A stretch of DNA of 64,000 bases, from contig JAQVJR010000002.1 in assembly GCA_028695015.1 (NCBI GenBank), positions 706 through 64,705 of the forward strand, written 5' to 3'. Both the position numbers and the translations under genes were made by a program. Position 1 is the stretch's first letter. Each line of letters opens with the position of its first letter. The DNA comes from Minisyncoccota bacterium (lineage in GTDB: Bacteria > Patescibacteriota > Minisyncoccia > UBA6257). The notes under the pieces were generated by a model, which saw nothing but the letters and a program-made list of their open reading frames with translations, was not told where the DNA came from and did no database searches. Positions 9,728 to 18,065 of this stretch are shown here, one piece after another.

Positions 9728-10678
9728 TTATTTATCCCAAGGAAAATCATTACCAAAATGCCCCCATTGGCTAGTTTTGAAATAGATAGGTTTTCTTAAA
9801 TCTAGGAAATCAATAATTCCTTTAGGGGTTAAATCAAATCCTTTAATTTGTATTTCCTTATTATCTATTAGAGCACTTTTCATTAAAGGTTGTTTTTGGC
9901 CAATAGCATAAGCTAATTTAATTAAAACTTCTTTTGCCTTGTATTTTTTTAAATAACTTATGGCTATTTTCCTTGCCATATAAGCAGCACTACGATCAAC
10001 TTTTGAAGGGTCTTTGCCACTAAAGCAACCTCCACCAACAGGTATTCTTGGTCCATAACTATCAACAATAATTTTTCTTCCAGTTAAACCAGTATCAGCA
10101 TCAAACCCACCAATACTCCAATCACCACAAGGATTAATGCAATATTCTTTTGCTTTTATTAGAGATTTTACTAATTTCTCAAGATCTTTTTGAGGAACAT
10201 TTTGAAAACTAACAACTACTGTTGATATTTCTTTATTTTTTATTGTTACTTGGGTTTTGCCATCAAAGGGATATTTTTCATAAATCTTTTGACATAAATC
10301 CCTTGCTAGTTCATATTCTAAAGGCATTAAGCTTTTTGTCTCTTTAGTAGCATAACCAATCATAATCCCCTGATCTCCTGCTCCACCAATTTCTACTCCC
10401 TGGGCTATTTCTGGACTTTGTTCAACTAGATTAATACTTAAATTATAATTCTTATTAATTAAGCTATAAACAATATCTGTAATTTGTTTTTTACTAATCT
10501 TGGCTTTACTTTTAATTTCTCCAATAATGACAATTTTATTATGACCTCCGATAACTTCTATAGCTGTACGACTATCTTTATCTTTTTCAAGATAATAATC
10601 TAAAATCTTATCTGCAATTTGATCACAGGTTTTATCAGGATGTTTTGGAGAAACAAATTCTGCTGTTTTGATTTTCAT
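9728..10678 (-). CDS. metK: S-adenosylmethionine synthetase (short form)
   Basis: HPDKTCDQIAD N-terminal motif and GGGCFSGKDPSKVDRSAAYMAR signature. Preceded by a SAM-I riboswitch. Confidence 0.85.
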   Translation of the reverse strand: MKIKTAEFVSPKHPDKTCDQIADKILDYYLEKDKDSRTAIEVIGGHNKIVIIGEIKSKAKISKKQITDIVYSLINKNYNLSINLVEQSPEIAQGVEIGGAGDQGIMIGYATKETKSLMPLEYELARDLCQKIYEKYPFDGKTQVTIKNKEISTVVVSFQNVPQKDLEKLVKSLIKAKEYCINPCGDWSIGGFDADTGLTGRKIIVDSYGPRIPVGGGCFSGKDPSKVDRSAAYMARKIAISYLKKYKAKEVLIKLAYAIGQKQPLMKSALIDNKEIQIKGFDLTPKGIIDFLDLRKPIYFKTSQWGHFGNDFPWDK

Positions 10679-10902: not shown

Positions 10903-11388
10903 TCAAATTTGTTCACGCTTATTTAGCATAAATTCTTGTAACCAAATAGCATCCTTTGTAAAGAGGACAAAAGAGCTGTCAGGTGTATGTTCTGACTTTT
11001 TATTACGTATTTTTATTTGAGCTGGTGATGAAGTCCAAAAATTTATTTTTGTTAATTGCAAGAAACGCATTAATATACCTGATCTTAATTCAATATTTTG
11101 AATACTATTAGATGGTATTAATTTTGATCTTTTTACTAAAATTCCAGATTTGATAGCTATACCATCTTCTTTCACTATAAAAGAAAAGTTTAAATAATGT
11201 AAATACAAAACAAAGAAAGCAGGAATAAAGACAAAGAATATTAATCCTGGTATTAAAATAGCCCCAACTTCTAAGGCATTAAGGATAGATAAAAGAATTA
11301 AAAAGAAAATAATTAAAACAACAAAGTTCAATAAGTAATATGATAATACTTTTTTAGGCATTTTGTGAGGAATATTTAAATTTATCAT
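10903..11388 (-). CDS. Membrane protein with bacterial PH (bPH_2/YdbS-like) domain
   Basis: Two N-terminal TM helices followed by an IVKEDGIAIKSGILVKRSKLIPSNSIQNIEL pattern typical of bPH_2. Confidence 0.45.
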   Translation of the reverse strand: MINLNIPHKMPKKVLSYYLLNFVVLIIFFLILLSILNALEVGAILIPGLIFFVFIPAFFVLYLHYLNFSFIVKEDGIAIKSGILVKRSKLIPSNSIQNIELRSGILMRFLQLTKINFWTSSPAQIKIRNKKSEHTPDSSFVLFTKDAIWLQEFMLNKREQI

Positions 11389-11419: not shown

Positions 11420-13864
11420 TTATTTCCAAAGTTTTAAAATTTTATTTTTAATCTTTTGATCAAAAAACTTAATCAACTCTTTATTAGCCTTAATAGCTTT
11501 CTGCTCCAAATCAAGCACTTCGATAATTTGTTTTTGAACTTTTATTGGTGGCAAAGGTACTTGGAGATTCTGAATATCGTTTTGGTTTATACTTGGGTAT
11601 GCTCCTCGCTCCATTCTTAAAATCATTTGATTTTGCAAGTAATCAGAGAAAAGTACGTAATATATATATTTACCAATAACATTCTTTTTTGGAGCAAGGA
11701 CGGCAAAACCTGTAGAAACTATTGTATTTTTTGGCAATTCGTTTAAATATGCGAAAGCTTTTAAATTTGGTCTAACTGTAGATAATAAAATATCTCCCTT
11801 TTGAGCAATTCTTTTTGCCCTACTTGGTGCTTCATCGCCTTTTATTTTATTCCTAAAAGAAATATTACCAGATGTGTTTTCCACAGAAGAAATATCAACA
11901 TAGTAAAATAATTTATTTCCATAAGTGCTTATAGGATCAATGGAATTTTTATTTATTTCTACAATTTCTTCTAATCTTTTTATTTCCCATTCTGGATTAA
12001 TTTCAATGATTGGTTTATAATTTTCTATTATTTGTTTCGCACCGTCTATGATTTTTTGATAATTATTAAGCTCCGCAACAATTTGTTTTTGAACTTCCAT
12101 TGGCGGGAGAGGGATTTGAATTTTCCTTAAATATTGTTTTGACAAATGCTTAAGTCCCGCTCCTCTAAAACCAGCATTAAGAACATTTATATTATTTTTA
12201 AGACAGTAATATAAGAACGTATTGTCTAAATCTTTGGTTTTACTTTTAATAACGAAAACATCAGCAGAGGTTGTAAAATTTCTTGATAAATGAACGCTCG
12301 CCATGCCTCCTGTGCCTAAAATTAAGGCTTCTTCTTTATAGTCAGCTACATTAAACCATTTATCCTGTACTTGACTTGAAGTAAAAAATGGATAATCTCC
12401 AGTAAGTTTACCATCGCCAGCTTTTCTTTTTGATTTTTGCAAGAATTCAATTAATTTTCCTAATTCCACCATTTGCCACGTCGCTTCCATTCCAATTCCT
12501 CTTTCACTGCTGGCATAATGGTTAATAGAAAGATTATATTCCCCGTCCTCGGCAATCTTTTCTTTTTTGATAACACTTGCTAATTTTTGCTCTTTTTCGC
12601 TAAGATTAAATTTTTTATCTTGCTGAACTGTTTGCTTATATTTTTTAATAATTTCTAAAGCTTTGGGTAAATCATTTTTATCTATTTCTCTCCTTTGTGC
12701 ACCTAGATCAAAACCATCATTTTCAATTTTGACAAATAGAATTTCTTTCACTTTTCGTGCTATTGGATTGCTGAAAAACAAGATACTAGTCTTGACACCA
12801 GCATAAGGATTAAATACTCCTCGTGGCAAAGAAACAACAGCCCAAAGTCCGTCTTCAACAAGTATTTTACGAAGCTGTTTATAGGCTCTACCTGATTGAA
12901 AAATTATACCTTCTGGAACAATAATACCAGCTTTTCCATTAGGAGCTAGATGCTCTACTATATAGTCTACAAACAATACCTCTGACCGTTTAGATTGTAT
13001 AAGAAAGCGATTATGAGGCTTTATACCACCTCTTGGAGTCATAAAAGGAGGATTAGCTAGTAAACAATCAAAAGCATCATCCCAACGCTCTAAACTGCTT
13101 AAAGTGTTATATTCATAGATGCCAGGTTCAGCGAAACCATGTAAATAAAGATTTACAAGTGATAAACGTACCATTTCGTGAGATATATCATAACCTACTA
13201 TATTATTCGTCAGTTTTTTTCTTTCTGTAGAAGTCAATAAAGAACCTGGCCTGCCCATTTTCTTATCTGTATTATTTTTTAATATATGTTTGTAAGCGGC
13301 AATAAGAAAACCAGCAGTACCACAAGCTGGATCTAATATCTTATCTTCTTTTTGTGGGTCAACTATTTCAACTATAAAATCAATGATATGACGTGGTGTT
13401 CTAAAATAGCCTGCTTTCTTTTGTCCAGCAACAGTTGATAAAAGATATTCAAAAGCGTTTCCTAACTCTTCGCTATGATCATATTTAAATTCATTAATTC
13501 CTTTAAGAAATAAATCTAATATGGCCGGATCTTTAAATGGTAAAATAGCACCCTTAAAAATATCCCTGAATAGCTGCGGTAGTTTATTATTCGTGCTCAT
13601 TTTTTCTAATCCTTCAGAATAAAGCAAAACTCTTTCGTGCCCAGCGAGAGAACGATCCATTATATTTTTCCAAGAATATTTTTTATATTCACCAGAAAAA
13701 AATAATTTACCGCCTAATTCCTCATTCTGTTCATCAATATCACTCATGAACTTATAAATTAAACTAAGCGTGATTTGTTCTATCTGTTGAGAAGGCACAG
13801 GAATTTTACCAACAAGCACATCACGCAAGTAATCTATTTTTCTTTTTGTTTCTGCGGTTAACAT
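11420..13864 (-). CDS. hsdMS: Type I restriction-modification system, fused methyltransferase (HsdM) + specificity (HsdS) subunit
   Basis: HsdM motifs GYFRTPRHI, DPACGTAGFL (motif I) and NPPF (motif IV) in the N-terminal 470 aa. Then two target-recognition domains separated by HsdS conserved coiled regions (PLPPMEVQKQIVAELN... and LQVPLPPIKVQKQIIEVLD...). Confidence 0.75.
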   Translation of the reverse strand: MLTAETKRKIDYLRDVLVGKIPVPSQQIEQITLSLIYKFMSDIDEQNEELGGKLFFSGEYKKYSWKNIMDRSLAGHERVLLYSEGLEKMSTNNKLPQLFRDIFKGAILPFKDPAILDLFLKGINEFKYDHSEELGNAFEYLLSTVAGQKKAGYFRTPRHIIDFIVEIVDPQKEDKILDPACGTAGFLIAAYKHILKNNTDKKMGRPGSLLTSTERKKLTNNIVGYDISHEMVRLSLVNLYLHGFAEPGIYEYNTLSSLERWDDAFDCLLANPPFMTPRGGIKPHNRFLIQSKRSEVLFVDYIVEHLAPNGKAGIIVPEGIIFQSGRAYKQLRKILVEDGLWAVVSLPRGVFNPYAGVKTSILFFSNPIARKVKEILFVKIENDGFDLGAQRREIDKNDLPKALEIIKKYKQTVQQDKKFNLSEKEQKLASVIKKEKIAEDGEYNLSINHYASSERGIGMEATWQMVELGKLIEFLQKSKRKAGDGKLTGDYPFFTSSQVQDKWFNVADYKEEALILGTGGMASVHLSRNFTTSADVFVIKSKTKDLDNTFLYYCLKNNINVLNAGFRGAGLKHLSKQYLRKIQIPLPPMEVQKQIVAELNNYQKIIDGAKQIIENYKPIIEINPEWEIKRLEEIVEINKNSIDPISTYGNKLFYYVDISSVENTSGNISFRNKIKGDEAPSRAKRIAQKGDILLSTVRPNLKAFAYLNELPKNTIVSTGFAVLAPKKNVIGKYIYYVLFSDYLQNQMILRMERGAYPSINQNDIQNLQVPLPPIKVQKQIIEVLDLEQKAIKANKELIKFFDQKIKNKILKLWK

Positions 13865-13869
13865 ATTAA

Positions 13870-16377
13870 TTAAACAAAAGCATTTAGCCTAACATTATCT
13901 TTTATATATTCAGGGATTTTAGTTAAATAATCTTCTTTGCCAAGTTTTTGTAAAACCTCTATTATTGTTGGATCTCCAGCTAATTCATTAAAACGTTTTT
14001 GATTAATTACTGTTCGGAAGTTTTCATCTACTAAATAGCTTCTAAAAAATTCACGTGCTTCGTAATACAATTCCGGCTTAATTTCTGAATTAACTAAATA
14101 CTTTTCAAATTCTTCTTGCGCTAATTCATCTTTTGATTTAAAACGTGGAATACGTCCCAAAACTTTATCCATTATTTCCCAAAAGGAAATATGACGGTCA
14201 GCTTTATATCCTTGCCTAATACGCTCTAAGGTAAAGAAATCTTCTGGTTTATTGAATATATTTTCTTTAACAAACTGCTCCATTAATTCATAATCACCAT
14301 TCTTAATAGCTTCTTTAAATTCATTATGTTTTTTAGCAGCCTCTTTAACTGTATTTTCAAACCGGCTAATATAAAGTTCTTTATCTACACGCATTATATT
14401 TCCTTCAAAAGTCATTACTTCCATCATCTTTAAAGGATCAGGGATGTTAATTGAAGTTTTATCAACTAATGGTACTGGGGCTAGCTTTTCTGTTATGCCT
14501 TTTTTTCTTGGAGGTAATTTAATAACTTGATCATAGGGATATTTCGTTTCAAAATATTCACAATTAGCAAAAAAATCAAAAAGTTTATACCCTTCCTTTG
14601 TTTTTCTCACTTCATTATCTCTATCTGAATGCTTAAAAGTATAAATACGAGTACCACGTCCTTTAATCTGAACAAAATCAGTTGGTGAAAAAATTGGTCT
14701 CATTAAACAAAGATTTAATACATCTTGGCAATCATAACCAGTTGTCATCATTCCAACAGTTACACAAACTCTTGTTTTGCTAGACTTATAACCTTCTAGA
14801 AATTTAGTAAATCCATTAAGTTTATTATTAGCAAAATTAATAGTCATTTTTTGAGCACTTGGAACATCTGAAGTAATCTGAACAGCAAAATCAGAATTGT
14901 ATTTTTCAGGAAACATTTTCATAGCAAATTCATTTAATATCTGAGTAATCTTTGAAGCGTGCTTACGACTAACACAGAACACGATTGTTTTTCCTATTTC
15001 ATTAGTTATGGGATCACGTTCAGCATTATCCATAAATGCTTTTACGAATTCAGAATTTGTTTGTTCGGAAAAGAAATTTCTTTCAAAATCACTTTGGTTA
15101 TAAATAACTTGTTCTTCTTCCCCTTCCTCTGTTTGTACCTGTACTGCATAACCTTCATCAGATAAAAGCTGAGTCGTTATTTCTGTACGACAATCTATGG
15201 CTGTTGGTAAAACCAAGAATCCATCTTTGGCACCATCAACTAGTGTATAGCGAAAAGTTGGTTCACTGCTCTCACACCCAAATGTTTTATAAGTAGATAA
15301 AAGATTGCGTCTTTCCATTTCTCTAGGATCACGTTCATTAATATCTTTCTGACTAAGATTTTTAAGATAATCTTTTGGAGTAGCAGTTAAACCTAATTTA
15401 TGGCCAATAAAATATTCAAAAATGGTGCGACTATTTCCAGAAATTGAACGATGGGCTTCATCAGAAATGATTAAATCAAAATCAGTGGGCGTAAAGATTT
15501 TAAGATATTTATTATTATGAGAAATGCTTTGGACTGTGGTAATAACAACTTCAGCTTTACGCCAATCATCTCTATTCTGTTTAAAAATAACTGTATGATA
15601 ATCTGGCTGTAAGAATTTTTTAAATGCTTTTTCAGCTTGATTTTCTAATTCCAAACGGTCAACTAAAAACAAAACACGGCGTGCATTGTTAGTTTTAAGA
15701 TAAAGCTTAATAATTGCAGAAGCAAGAACTGTTTTACCAGTACCTGTTGCCATTTCAAAGAGAAAGCGATTTTTACCCTCAGAAACAGCTCTTTGTAAAG
15801 ATTTTATAGCATCAAGTTGATATTGACGAAGAAAATGTAAGCCAGTATCAAAAATAAATGACTGCCTTTTTTGTTCATCAGGCCATCGTGGGTCTTGTTC
15901 GTAAAAAGGGTTTTGAGTTAAGGCAATATAATTTTCTTTTATTTCTTCCTTTATAATTTTATTAGTATCTGGAGTAAATTCTTTATTACCTTTTAAGCTT
16001 TGAAGGGTTGGAAATGTAGAAATTCTTGTTGGATTGCCTAATTCTTTATCCCAAAAATAATGAATATTACCATTAGAAAGAATGATAAAGCGAACATTTT
16101 GACTATTAGCATATCGGCGAGCTTGCTCCTTGCCAATTAAAGGATCTTTACTTTCAGATTTTGCTTCTAAAACACAGATTGGAAAGTTTTGATTATCTAA
16201 TAAAAGATAATCTACAAAACCTGTACTAGATTTTTGAAAATCATTTCCCAGCTCCTCTATTTCAATATTACCTTCTAGTTTTATATTTGCTTTTCCATCT
16301 TTATTATCAAAAAATCTCCAACCAGATTTTTGGAGCAAATCATTAATTTTAATCCTCGCCCTTGCTTCTTTTTCCAT
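13870..16377 (-). CDS. hsdR: Type I restriction enzyme R subunit (compact, 835 aa)
   Basis: N-terminal PD-(D/E)xK nuclease (VLEAKSES...QARRYA). SF2 ATPase motifs MATGTGKT and SDEAHRS. 5 bp upstream of hsdMS. Confidence 0.8.
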   Translation of the reverse strand: MEKEARARIKINDLLQKSGWRFFDNKDGKANIKLEGNIEIEELGNDFQKSSTGFVDYLLLDNQNFPICVLEAKSESKDPLIGKEQARRYANSQNVRFIILSNGNIHYFWDKELGNPTRISTFPTLQSLKGNKEFTPDTNKIIKEEIKENYIALTQNPFYEQDPRWPDEQKRQSFIFDTGLHFLRQYQLDAIKSLQRAVSEGKNRFLFEMATGTGKTVLASAIIKLYLKTNNARRVLFLVDRLELENQAEKAFKKFLQPDYHTVIFKQNRDDWRKAEVVITTVQSISHNNKYLKIFTPTDFDLIISDEAHRSISGNSRTIFEYFIGHKLGLTATPKDYLKNLSQKDINERDPREMERRNLLSTYKTFGCESSEPTFRYTLVDGAKDGFLVLPTAIDCRTEITTQLLSDEGYAVQVQTEEGEEEQVIYNQSDFERNFFSEQTNSEFVKAFMDNAERDPITNEIGKTIVFCVSRKHASKITQILNEFAMKMFPEKYNSDFAVQITSDVPSAQKMTINFANNKLNGFTKFLEGYKSSKTRVCVTVGMMTTGYDCQDVLNLCLMRPIFSPTDFVQIKGRGTRIYTFKHSDRDNEVRKTKEGYKLFDFFANCEYFETKYPYDQVIKLPPRKKGITEKLAPVPLVDKTSINIPDPLKMMEVMTFEGNIMRVDKELYISRFENTVKEAAKKHNEFKEAIKNGDYELMEQFVKENIFNKPEDFFTLERIRQGYKADRHISFWEIMDKVLGRIPRFKSKDELAQEEFEKYLVNSEIKPELYYEAREFFRSYLVDENFRTVINQKRFNELAGDPTIIEVLQKLGKEDYLTKIPEYIKDNVRLNAFV

Positions 16378-16490
16378 TATTTCTGAATTTTTCTATAATT
16401 CTATTTATTTAAATAAAAAACCCCCACCGTTTTTATACTATATCATTTTTTTGGAAAACAAGGAATGCTTAGGGTATAATAAGAAACATC

Positions 16491-18065
16491 ATGAAAAATC
16501 AAGAAAAATTAGCTCAAATAATAGTAGAAAGAGCTAATAAACAACAAGTATCTACTAAACAAGAGATTATTGAAATTCAAAGGGAAGTTAGTAAAGAATT
16601 TCATAATTTTTTTATTCCTTTTTCTGAATTATTAAAAAGCTATAAAAAATTAATTCAATTAAAGAAAATCCTACCTAATAAACAATTAGAAGGATTGTTA
16701 AAAAAAGCTAGAATTCGTTCTTTATCAGGCATTGTAGCTATTACTGTAATTACTAAACCTTATCCTTGTCCAGGAAATTGTTTGTATTGCCCTGATATAT
16801 CTAATATGCCTAAAAGCTATTTACCTGATGAACCAGCTTGTATGCGGGCTTTATTAAATAAGTTTGATCCATATAAGCAAATCCAAATGAGAACTCAAGC
16901 TTTAAGAGCTAATGGACACCCAACAGATAAAATAGAATTAATTGTCTTAGGAGGTACCTGGTCATATTATCCTAAAAAATACCAAAATTGGTTTATTAAG
17001 AGATGCTTTGATGGAGCTAATAATAAAACATCTAAGAGCTTAGAATTAGCTCAAAAGATTAATGAAAAAACAGATAATAGGATTATTGGTCTAACAATAG
17101 AAACTAGACCTGATTATATTAATCTAGAAGAAGTAGAAAGATTAAGAAAATTAGGTGTTACTAGAGTGGAATTAGGAATTCAAAGCCTAGAAGATGATGT
17201 TTTAGAATTTAATAAAAGAGGTCACTTAGTTGATCAAACCATAAAAGCAACAAAATTATTGAAAAATGCTGGATTTAAAATCACTTATCATATGATGCTT
17301 AATTTACCTGGTTCTGATTTAAAAAAAGATGAAAAGATGTTTGTTAAACTATTTTCTAATCCTGATTTTCAACCAGATCAATTAAAAATCTATCCTTGTG
17401 CTGTTTTAAAAACCGCACCTTTGTATAAAATGTTTTTAGATAAACAATACCAACCATATACAGAAAAACAGCTAATAAATCTTTTAATTAAAATCAAAGA
17501 GGAAATCCCTTCATATGTTAGGATTATCAGAATCATTCGTGATATTCCTGCTAATAATATTATTGCTGGGAATAAAGTTTCAAATTTAAGACAAGTAATT
17601 CAAGCTCAGATGAAAGAAGAAAACAAATCCTGTCAATGTATAAGATGTCGAGAACCTTATGATATTCCAATTGATTTTAAGAATGTTAAATTAATTCACA
17701 GAGAATATATGGCTCATAATGGTAAGGAAATCTTTCTTTCTTATGAAGATGTAAAAAACAACAAGATTTTAGCTTTTCTAAGATTGCGTTTACCAAATGA
17801 ATGGACTTTTCCTTATCTTAAAGATTCTGCTCTCATACGTGAATTACATAGTTATGGTATAGTGGCGCCTTTAAAAAAAGACAAGAAATCTAATATCCAA
17901 CATAAAGGTTTGGGTAGTAAATTAATGAAACAAGCAGAAAAGATTGTTAAAGAACATACTCAATATAATAAAATAGCCGTGATTAGCGGCATAGGAGTTA
18001 GAGAATATTATCGTAAATTAGGATATCGTTTATCTAATACTTATATGATAAAGAAACTTTTGTGA
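16491..18065 (+). CDS. elp3: Elp3-like radical SAM + GNAT acetyltransferase (tRNA uridine-34 acetyltransferase homolog)
   Basis: Elp3-type N-terminus RSLSGIVAITVITKPYPCPGNCLYCP. C-terminal GNAT region (HKGLGSKLMKQAEKI). Length 524 aa. Confidence 0.8.
   Translation: MKNQEKLAQIIVERANKQQVSTKQEIIEIQREVSKEFHNFFIPFSELLKSYKKLIQLKKILPNKQLEGLLKKARIRSLSGIVAITVITKPYPCPGNCLYCPDISNMPKSYLPDEPACMRALLNKFDPYKQIQMRTQALRANGHPTDKIELIVLGGTWSYYPKKYQNWFIKRCFDGANNKTSKSLELAQKINEKTDNRIIGLTIETRPDYINLEEVERLRKLGVTRVELGIQSLEDDVLEFNKRGHLVDQTIKATKLLKNAGFKITYHMMLNLPGSDLKKDEKMFVKLFSNPDFQPDQLKIYPCAVLKTAPLYKMFLDKQYQPYTEKQLINLLIKIKEEIPSYVRIIRIIRDIPANNIIAGNKVSNLRQVIQAQMKEENKSCQCIRCREPYDIPIDFKNVKLIHREYMAHNGKEIFLSYEDVKNNKILAFLRLRLPNEWTFPYLKDSALIRELHSYGIVAPLKKDKKSNIQHKGLGSKLMKQAEKIVKEHTQYNKIAVISGIGVREYYRKLGYRLSNTYMIKKLL

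Follow-up and report, generated by a model that had tools for sequence, protein, structure and literature searches.

The 64,000-nucleotide stretch analysed here (the window) covers positions 706 to 64,705 of contig JAQVJR010000002.1 from a Minisyncoccota bacterium (GenBank assembly GCA_028695015.1). It carries a restriction-modification (R-M) system made of only two genes, hsdR and hsdMS, the second of which encodes the modification (M) and specificity (S) subunits as a single protein. The gene for the restriction (R) subunit comes first and the fused M-S gene second, on the same strand. The first-pass annotation, prepared from the letters alone, had read an 835-amino-acid (aa) hsdR followed after 5 bp by one 814-aa open reading frame (ORF), and both the ORF coordinates and the spacer were confirmed. 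The GC content of the locus is 29%–32%, and ORFs of more than 800 codons in such DNA, together with the E-values of the encoded domains, lie far beyond chance. The two genes form an operon, with probable translational coupling across the short spacer, and the hsdR promoter is presumed to lie in the divergent intergenic region, where promoter-like matches occur at consensus level only. Searches of the 64-kb window by tblastn with the M, S and R parts returned no further M-, S- or R-like sequence, and an additional hsdM, spare hsdS cassettes and a shufflon close to the locus were rejected on this result. The locus is likely to be an intact two-gene type I R-M system with a natural “Type IMS” architecture, in which two M~S chains probably act at each site.

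The fused protein, HsdMS, joins a gamma-class N6-adenine methyltransferase (MTase) to a complete specificity subunit. In the M part, Pfam N6_Mtase covers residues 132–454 (E 2.9e-52), and the PADLOC MTase_I model PDLC03021 aligns residues 1–454 with model positions 2–455 of 491 (E 7.5e-96). The catalytic domain has fold matches to HsdM structures, the best PDB matches of the M part are HsdM subunits, and the first 130 residues are 50%–93% identical across the family. From residue 462 onward, Pfam Methylase_S matches twice (E 1.6e-34), and the S part is also recognized by many PADLOC type I specificity models. Its order is that of a first target recognition domain (TRD1), a central conserved region (CR1), TRD2 and a distal conserved region (CR2). 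The characteristic motifs are intact, namely FRTPR154, DPACGTAGF178 and NPPF271 in the M part and PLPP..VQKQI at 585 and 770 in the S part. The earlier reading of an N-terminal gamma MTase with FRTPR, DPACGTAGF and NPPF, followed by a complete C-terminal specificity subunit, therefore agrees with the Pfam matches and the motif positions. The M/S junction, which that reading had set at 12400–12500, does overlap this interval but lies slightly to the right, at residues ~446–464 (nucleotides [nt] ~12473–12529). Within it, the linker of residues 446–461 is the least conserved segment of HsdMS (0%–33% identity). An AlphaFold2 (AF2) model of the protein has a mean predicted local distance difference test (pLDDT) score of 83.4 and a predicted template modelling (pTM) score of 0.52, with confident domains, a disordered linker and no tail helix. 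TRD2 matches TRD1 of the T. tengcongensis HsdS (5YBB_D/3OKG) with 89–91 bits over ~170 residues, a relationship too distant for the target sequence to be predicted.

HsdR is equally complete. Pfam HSDR_N, ResIII (residues 183–335) and Helicase_C (residues 459–578) all match, and all the expected motifs of the nuclease and of the superfamily 2 (SF2) motor are intact. The nuclease motifs match the ones reported for HsdR_Vv and EcoAI (PMC2777439). The C-terminal region, residues 581–835, is presumed to be the MTase-binding domain; in tblastn alignments, HsdR homologues reach residue ~835 in fused loci and in unfused sister loci alike. The best NCBIfam match is the EcoAI/FtnUII family NF046051, which aligns residues 10–580 with 252.1 bits, below the equivalog cutoff of 550, and leaves the C-terminal ~250 aa outside the model. 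Judged by these matches, HsdR is related to EcoAI, yet is not an EcoAI equivalog. According to the V. vulnificus HsdR paper, assignment to the type IB family is experimental, by complementation, cross-hybridisation and antibody cross-reaction with EcoAI subunits (PMC2777439). Among PDB entries, HsdR is closest to 3H1T, an EcoAI-like HsdR of 817 aa from V. vulnificus (PMC2777439). Since the best NCBIfam and PDB matches both point to it, a length of ~830 aa is normal for the EcoAI/type IB-like lineage, and the suggestion that this HsdR is anomalously short in comparison with classical ones does not hold. Type IB enzymes such as EcoAI share with the window system a similar HsdR length and domain order and the gene order R-M-S; they differ in that the M and S of EcoAI are separate proteins.

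Table 1. Features of the hsdR–hsdMS locus, with positions in the window.
Feature	Positions	Strand	Description
Divergent intergenic region, hsdR and Elp3-like gene	16378-16490	no strand	Presumed promoter site
hsdR	13870-16377	minus	835-aa ORF; restriction and translocase subunit, EcoAI/type IB-like lineage
HsdR PD-(D/E)xK nuclease domain, aa ~1-160	15898-16377	minus	D56, E71-x-K73, Q85xxxY89
HsdR SF2 motor, aa ~183-580	14638-15831	minus	GTGKT212, DEAH306, TATP331, QxxGRGTR570
HsdR C-terminal region, aa 581-835	13873-14637	minus	No Pfam match; conserved in the clade
hsdR/hsdMS spacer	13865-13869	minus	5 nt (TAA-ttaat-ATG), from hsdR stop to hsdMS start
hsdMS	11420-13864	minus	814-aa ORF; fused modification-specificity subunit
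M part, N-terminal helical domain, aa 1-130	13475-13864	minus	PADLOC MTase_I; helices predicted by AF2
M part, gamma-class N6-adenine MTase catalytic domain, aa 131-445	12530-13474	minus	Ends with NLSxxHY motif
Flexible M-S linker, aa 446-461	12482-12529	minus	AF2 pLDDT <50
TRD1, aa 462-580	12125-12481	minus	Pfam Methylase_S 462-614
CR1, central conserved helix, aa 581-620	12005-12124	minus	PLPPMEVQKQI at 585; AF2 helix 589-615
TRD2, aa 621-768	11561-12004	minus	Matches TRD1 of T. tengcongensis HsdS
CR2, distal conserved helix, aa 769-814	11423-11560	minus	PLPPIKVQKQI at 770; AF2 helix 774-813

The fusion is not peculiar to this contig. A search of protein collections with HsdMS returned more than 120 clusters of full-length homologues (790–860 aa, 100% query coverage, 43%–68% identity), all with the same Pfam architecture, from sources that include Patescibacteria, Aureabacteria, Marinimicrobia, a Methanosarcinales archaeon and the cultured Thermotomaculum hydrothermale. 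In a scan of one genome per GTDB species, relatives were present in at least 596 genomes; the best 80 of these all match residues 1–813 in a single frame and span more than 15 phyla, with an archaeon and Thiobacillus denitrificans RG among them. Around 20 further full-length copies lie on IMG/VR contigs. The first-pass annotation had feared that a sequencing or assembly error might have erased a stop or frameshift between hsdM and hsdS. Unfused sister loci with overlapping hsdM and hsdS do exist, and one indel could in principle fuse such genes. However, more than 120 protein clusters and the best 80 genome matches, from many laboratories and phyla, share the continuous frame and the tail-less junction, and the fused and unfused clades differ by a deletion of ~30 aa, not by one base. 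As the continuous frame recurs in more than 80 independent genomes, an artefact is practically untenable and was rejected, and the M-S fusion proposed by the annotation is natural. Its further claim, that such a fusion is architecturally unusual, stands insofar as this is a minority design; rarity is contradicted by the at least 596 species genomes, by the existing name Type IMS and by the precedent of the V. vulnificus protein 7EEW. The locus is thus a fairly ordinary member of a widespread, little-studied two-gene family. No description of natural two-TRD M-S fusions was found in the literature searched, which was mostly open-access and excluded REBASE, so that their absence from the literature is not proven; the search yielded engineered M-S fusions and the V. 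vulnificus M1S1/2 only. A lead to a Zymomonas “hsdMS” turned out to be a fusion of R-nuclease and M and was irrelevant.

Unfused sisters of the family give an indication of how the fusion may have arisen. In the loci L101 and L102, HsdR is 48%–50% and HsdM 51%–52% identical to the window proteins, and HsdM is a protein of 477 and 484 aa, respectively. In L101, a separate hsdS (Pfam Methylase_S) follows hsdM with an ATGA overlap of 4 nt; in L102, the ORF downstream of hsdM is also separate and has no Pfam match. Both HsdM proteins continue for ~30 residues beyond a conserved (N/S)LS..(K/H)Y motif. This tail, assumed to form the helix by which M is normally held to the HsdS coiled coil, is missing from the fused clade, in which a variable linker of ~12–16 residues takes its place. 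A three-gene ancestor with ATGA-overlapping hsdM and hsdS would have given rise to the fusion by loss of the stop or frameshift and deletion of the ~30-aa tail, and the covalent tether would substitute for the lost anchor. Within the same R/M clade, two distant relatives on IMG/VR contigs (L103:4001-6106 and L105:4001-5902) have M fused to one different Methylase_S-type TRD, in proteins of 701 and 634 aa, which suggests that M-S fusion happened more than once.

The two genes also travel together. In three homologous loci with gene calls (L001–L003), an HSDR_N/ResIII protein of ~836–840 aa is encoded directly upstream of hsdMS, and tblastn of 83 loci with the window HsdR found a full-length homologue (47%–86% identity) encoded upstream in the same orientation wherever the locus extended far enough. 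The same method found no second M copy within ±6 kb of 80 homologous loci. The R-to-MS distance, measured between the last aligned HsdR position and the hsdMS start with the stop codon included, is at most 30 nt in 38 of 70 homologous loci and exceeds 300 nt in 24 of the 70, where cargo genes lie in between. The cargo includes Fic/DOC, an IS200-like Y1 transposase, ORF6N, KilA-N, PDDEXK_3, a 23S-rRNA-IVP-like four-helix protein, DUF3800, DUF4062 with HATPase_c_4, Schlafen/AlbA_2 and a PemK/MazF toxin (L001, L008, L016, L033, L037, L042, L047, L048, L056, L063 and L065); at the window locus, no cargo gene separates hsdR and hsdMS. In an Owenweeksia sp. metagenome-assembled genome (MAG; L034:6001-10540), the M~S ORF runs ~700 aa further, to 1513 aa in total, and this extension, absent from the other loci, has many TPR-like repeats at its end. 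There are also signs of decay in places within the family: one hsdMS has a premature stop at codon 677, past which the similarity continues (L047:6001-8520), and one hsdR is reduced to an N-terminal remnant (L071:5038-5520).

Across 43 aligned HsdMS homologues, the M part is 56%–93% identical to the window protein, and identity drops to 11%–78% in TRD1 and 13%–57% in TRD2, each TRD varying independently of the M backbone. The CRs are conserved while the TRDs are mosaic, a pattern of working specificity subunits, and both TRDs appear functional. TRD types are also common to the two positions: in comparisons of position 1 with position 2, 9 pairs are at least 60% identical and 59 pairs 40%–60%, which would make both positions functional and geometrically equivalent. 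In one Cloacimonadota MAG (L075), TRD1 and TRD2 of a single M~S protein are 84% identical, a degree of identity that suggests a recent TRD duplication and predicts a near-palindromic bipartite target. Shorter clade members of 630–660 aa (66%–76% identity) consist of M, TRD1 and a hybrid helix in which the start of CR1 is joined to the end of CR2; they are deletion products of CR1/CR2 recombination and should dimerise as V. vulnificus M1S1/2 does. Domain content, intact catalytic motifs, operon structure, strict co-occurrence of R and M~S and mosaic exchange of TRDs are direct observations, and the locus evolves under the regime typical of active type I systems.

Regarding classification, the window system has what type I enzymes have in general, which is an R subunit with nuclease and SF2 motor, an MTase of the HsdM family and a specificity module of two TRDs and two CRs. 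It departs from the organisation in three separate subunits (R2M2S1), as M and S are one polypeptide. The closest concept is that of Type IMS, a name given by Roberts and others to an HsdM-HsdS fusion with one or two TRDs and a separate HsdR, after removal of the frameshift between the EcoKI hsdM and hsdS had produced a working system (Roberts et al., 2012; PMC3510504). Later, Bower and others described that the S. aureus CC398-1 fusions MSfus and M1/2Sfus are active with HsdR, and that MSfus methylates both strands, possibly as (MSfus)2 (Bower et al., 2018; PMC6158711). The window locus has the HsdM-HsdS fusion and the adjacent separate HsdR that define Type IMS, and it shares with the engineered enzymes an HsdM in frame at the HsdS N-terminus and one M per two TRDs. 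The engineered enzymes, however, are laboratory constructs of type IA or staphylococcal origin that contain the full HsdM with its tail, whereas the present fusion is natural, tail-less and paired with a type IB-like HsdR.

A natural precedent is M1S1/2 from V. vulnificus YJ016 (7EEW; Seo et al., 2022), which has one TRD and one CR and forms a dimer, (M1S1/2)2, as cited in a later paper (PMC12429846). The crystal structure 7EEW is the top Foldseek match of the HsdMS model (E 2.9e-27), and it is collinear with HsdMS by sequence (query 110–596 on chain 118–599, 94 bits), with an identity of ~19% that places the window protein in a different lineage. Both are natural HsdM-HsdS fusions, 7EEW with a single TRD and CR and the window protein with two, and the HsdR proteins of the two organisms (3H1T in V. 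vulnificus) are alike in being ~820–835 aa long and EcoAI-like. It is reported that 7EEW keeps an M-tail helix.

Single-chain type IIB enzymes, for example AloI and CjeI, also have a gamma-MTase followed by TRD-CR-TRD-CR in the same chain, with the same 1:2 ratio of catalytic module to TRDs as in HsdMS, and HsdMS residues 442–811 align with the C-terminus of a PADLOC type IIG model (positions 870–1266 of 1271, E 2.7e-42). Nevertheless, in enzymes of the AloI/CjeI class an N-terminal nuclease belongs to the chain itself, an ATP-dependent motor is lacking, and cleavage falls at fixed distances to either side of the site. In the window system it is a separate SF2 motor subunit that bears the nuclease, and the N-terminus of M~S is the HsdM N-domain, so that the N-terminal nuclease-MTase fusion without ATPase motor that marks types IIB and IIG is not what is found here. 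The first-pass annotation had compared the fusion with the M-S part of type ISP enzymes. These enzymes, exemplified by LlaGI and LlaBIII, are single polypeptides with an Mrr-like nuclease and one TRD, recognize continuous asymmetric sites and methylate one strand (PMC3874165). A covalent MTase-TRD unit and the presence of an SF2 translocase and a nuclease are common to both, but the window system has two ORFs, an HSDR_N-type nuclease and two TRDs, and falls outside the type ISP definition. No type ISP entry appeared among the PDB sequence matches at E≤1e-5 or the top 50 Foldseek matches. With classical HsdM and HsdS subunits and 7EEW as the best matches, a type ISP affinity was rejected, and the proposed resemblance is a weak one.

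A mechanism can be outlined from these comparisons. The target read by TRD1 and TRD2 would be bipartite and probably asymmetric; the M domain would methylate adenine to N6-methyladenine (m6A), and HsdR would dock on the M domain, as the conservation of its full length between fused and unfused sisters suggests. At unmethylated sites, HsdR would drive translocation with ATP and cleave at a distance. Because each chain brings a single M for its two TRDs and there is no free hsdM, the active form most likely places two M~S chains on a site, with one of the S modules idle; such an arrangement has been put forward for engineered MS fusions and is implicit in single-chain type IIB enzymes. The equivalence of the TRD positions, the presumably dimeric one-TRD relatives with the same HsdR and the methylation of both strands by MSfus favour it. 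Several observations weigh on the other side. Without the HsdM tail, the classical means of anchoring a further M is gone; the inter-domain geometry of the AF2 model, as its pTM of 0.52 implies, is uncertain; purified EcoKI MSFusion required added free HsdM in vitro (PMC3510504); and CC398-1 MSfus co-purified with a clipped M-containing fragment, so that a pure (M~S)2 mechanism is unproven for the engineered enzymes too (PMC6158711).

With the tail lost, a complex with one M and a proteolytically released M are rivals to the arrangement of two M~S chains. A single M~S chain might sit on the bipartite site, methylate the TRD1 half-site on one strand and recruit one HsdR, with cleavage upon collision of converging enzymes, much like a split type ISP enzyme, or one in the style of type III, that recognizes a bipartite target. 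Such a complex would fit the one M per two TRDs, the lack of a free hsdM in the window and, for 80 loci, in the surrounding ±6 kb, and a fused clade without the tail that its unfused sisters kept, in which a second M has no obvious anchor. It is rather unlikely, both in its stoichiometry and in its route to cleavage, as the TRD types are interchangeable between positions 1 and 2, which suggests equivalence; single-TRD members of the clade, with a near-identical HsdR (85% identity), should form symmetric M2(S1/2)2 dimers; and the engineered CC398-1 MSfus methylated both strands (PMC6158711). Free M could otherwise be supplied by proteolysis of the linker, or by occasional termination or frameshifting at the junction, to give M together with M~S or an M2S1 core. 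The predicted disorder of linker 446–461 in the AF2 model agrees with this, as do the need of EcoKI MSFusion for free HsdM in vitro, with the M2S1-type core proposed for that fusion (PMC3510504), and the clipped fragment of CC398-1 MSfus (PMC6158711). A released M, however, would be without the tail needed to bind the HsdS coiled coil, and the linker is the least conserved segment, which speaks against a conserved recoding or cleavage signal; as Met459 is not conserved either, a conserved recoding signal or internal start at the junction is unsupported, and a supply of free M is a very doubtful explanation.

Around the operon, the gene 31 nt downstream of hsdMS (10903-11388, minus strand) encodes a small membrane protein that has a bacterial PH domain (bPH_2). 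In the three homologous loci with gene calls that were examined (L001–L003), the downstream genes vary and this one is not conserved among them; a conserved downstream partner was therefore rejected and the bPH_2 gene placed outside the R-M system. Beyond it, ~740 nt downstream of this S-adenosylmethionine (SAM)-dependent R-M operon, lies a gene for MetK, the SAM synthetase (9728-10678, minus strand). At 316 aa this MetK is unusually short; it aligns with positions 3–366 of 377 of TIGR01034 with internal deletions and scores 275.7 bits, the curated cutoff being 309.4. Divergent from hsdR there is a full-length Elp3-type radical-SAM/GNAT tRNA-modification enzyme (16491-18065, plus strand; TIGR01211, 565 bits). 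Elp3 is uncommon in bacteria. In close relatives, a small HTH_17/MerR-type gene is found directly upstream of hsdR (L002:5278-5481 and L003:5264-5482), with a serine recombinase beside it in L003, and it may be a controller protein or a mobile-element marker. No HTH_17 regulator gene is present at the window locus, where hsdR adjoins the divergent Elp3-like gene instead.

Taken by itself, the locus is an ordinary, apparently functional defence system in a low-GC genome, and the residual interest lies in the stoichiometry of the family rather than in the window locus. If a single M were to serve each site, self-protection and cleavage would follow type III/type ISP logic, with a dependence on site orientation and motor collision, and the widespread family would form a class of its own in mechanism, linking type I with type ISP. 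Because the natural fusions have lost the HsdM tail, it becomes a sharper question how a single MTase can serve two TRDs; AloI and CjeI raise it as well, and the cultured carriers Thermotomaculum hydrothermale and Thiobacillus denitrificans RG could be used as test systems. Annotation pipelines label the HsdMS homologues merely “N-6 DNA methylase” or “type I M protein”, and defence finders with three-gene rules may in consequence under-count these systems. The Type IMS arrangement, built by Dryden’s group as a hypothetical evolutionary intermediate, exists naturally and abundantly, and since unfused, two-TRD fused and one-TRD fused forms occur in one clade, the evolutionary steps between them, namely loss of the overlap frameshift and CR-CR recombination, can be read directly from the sequences.

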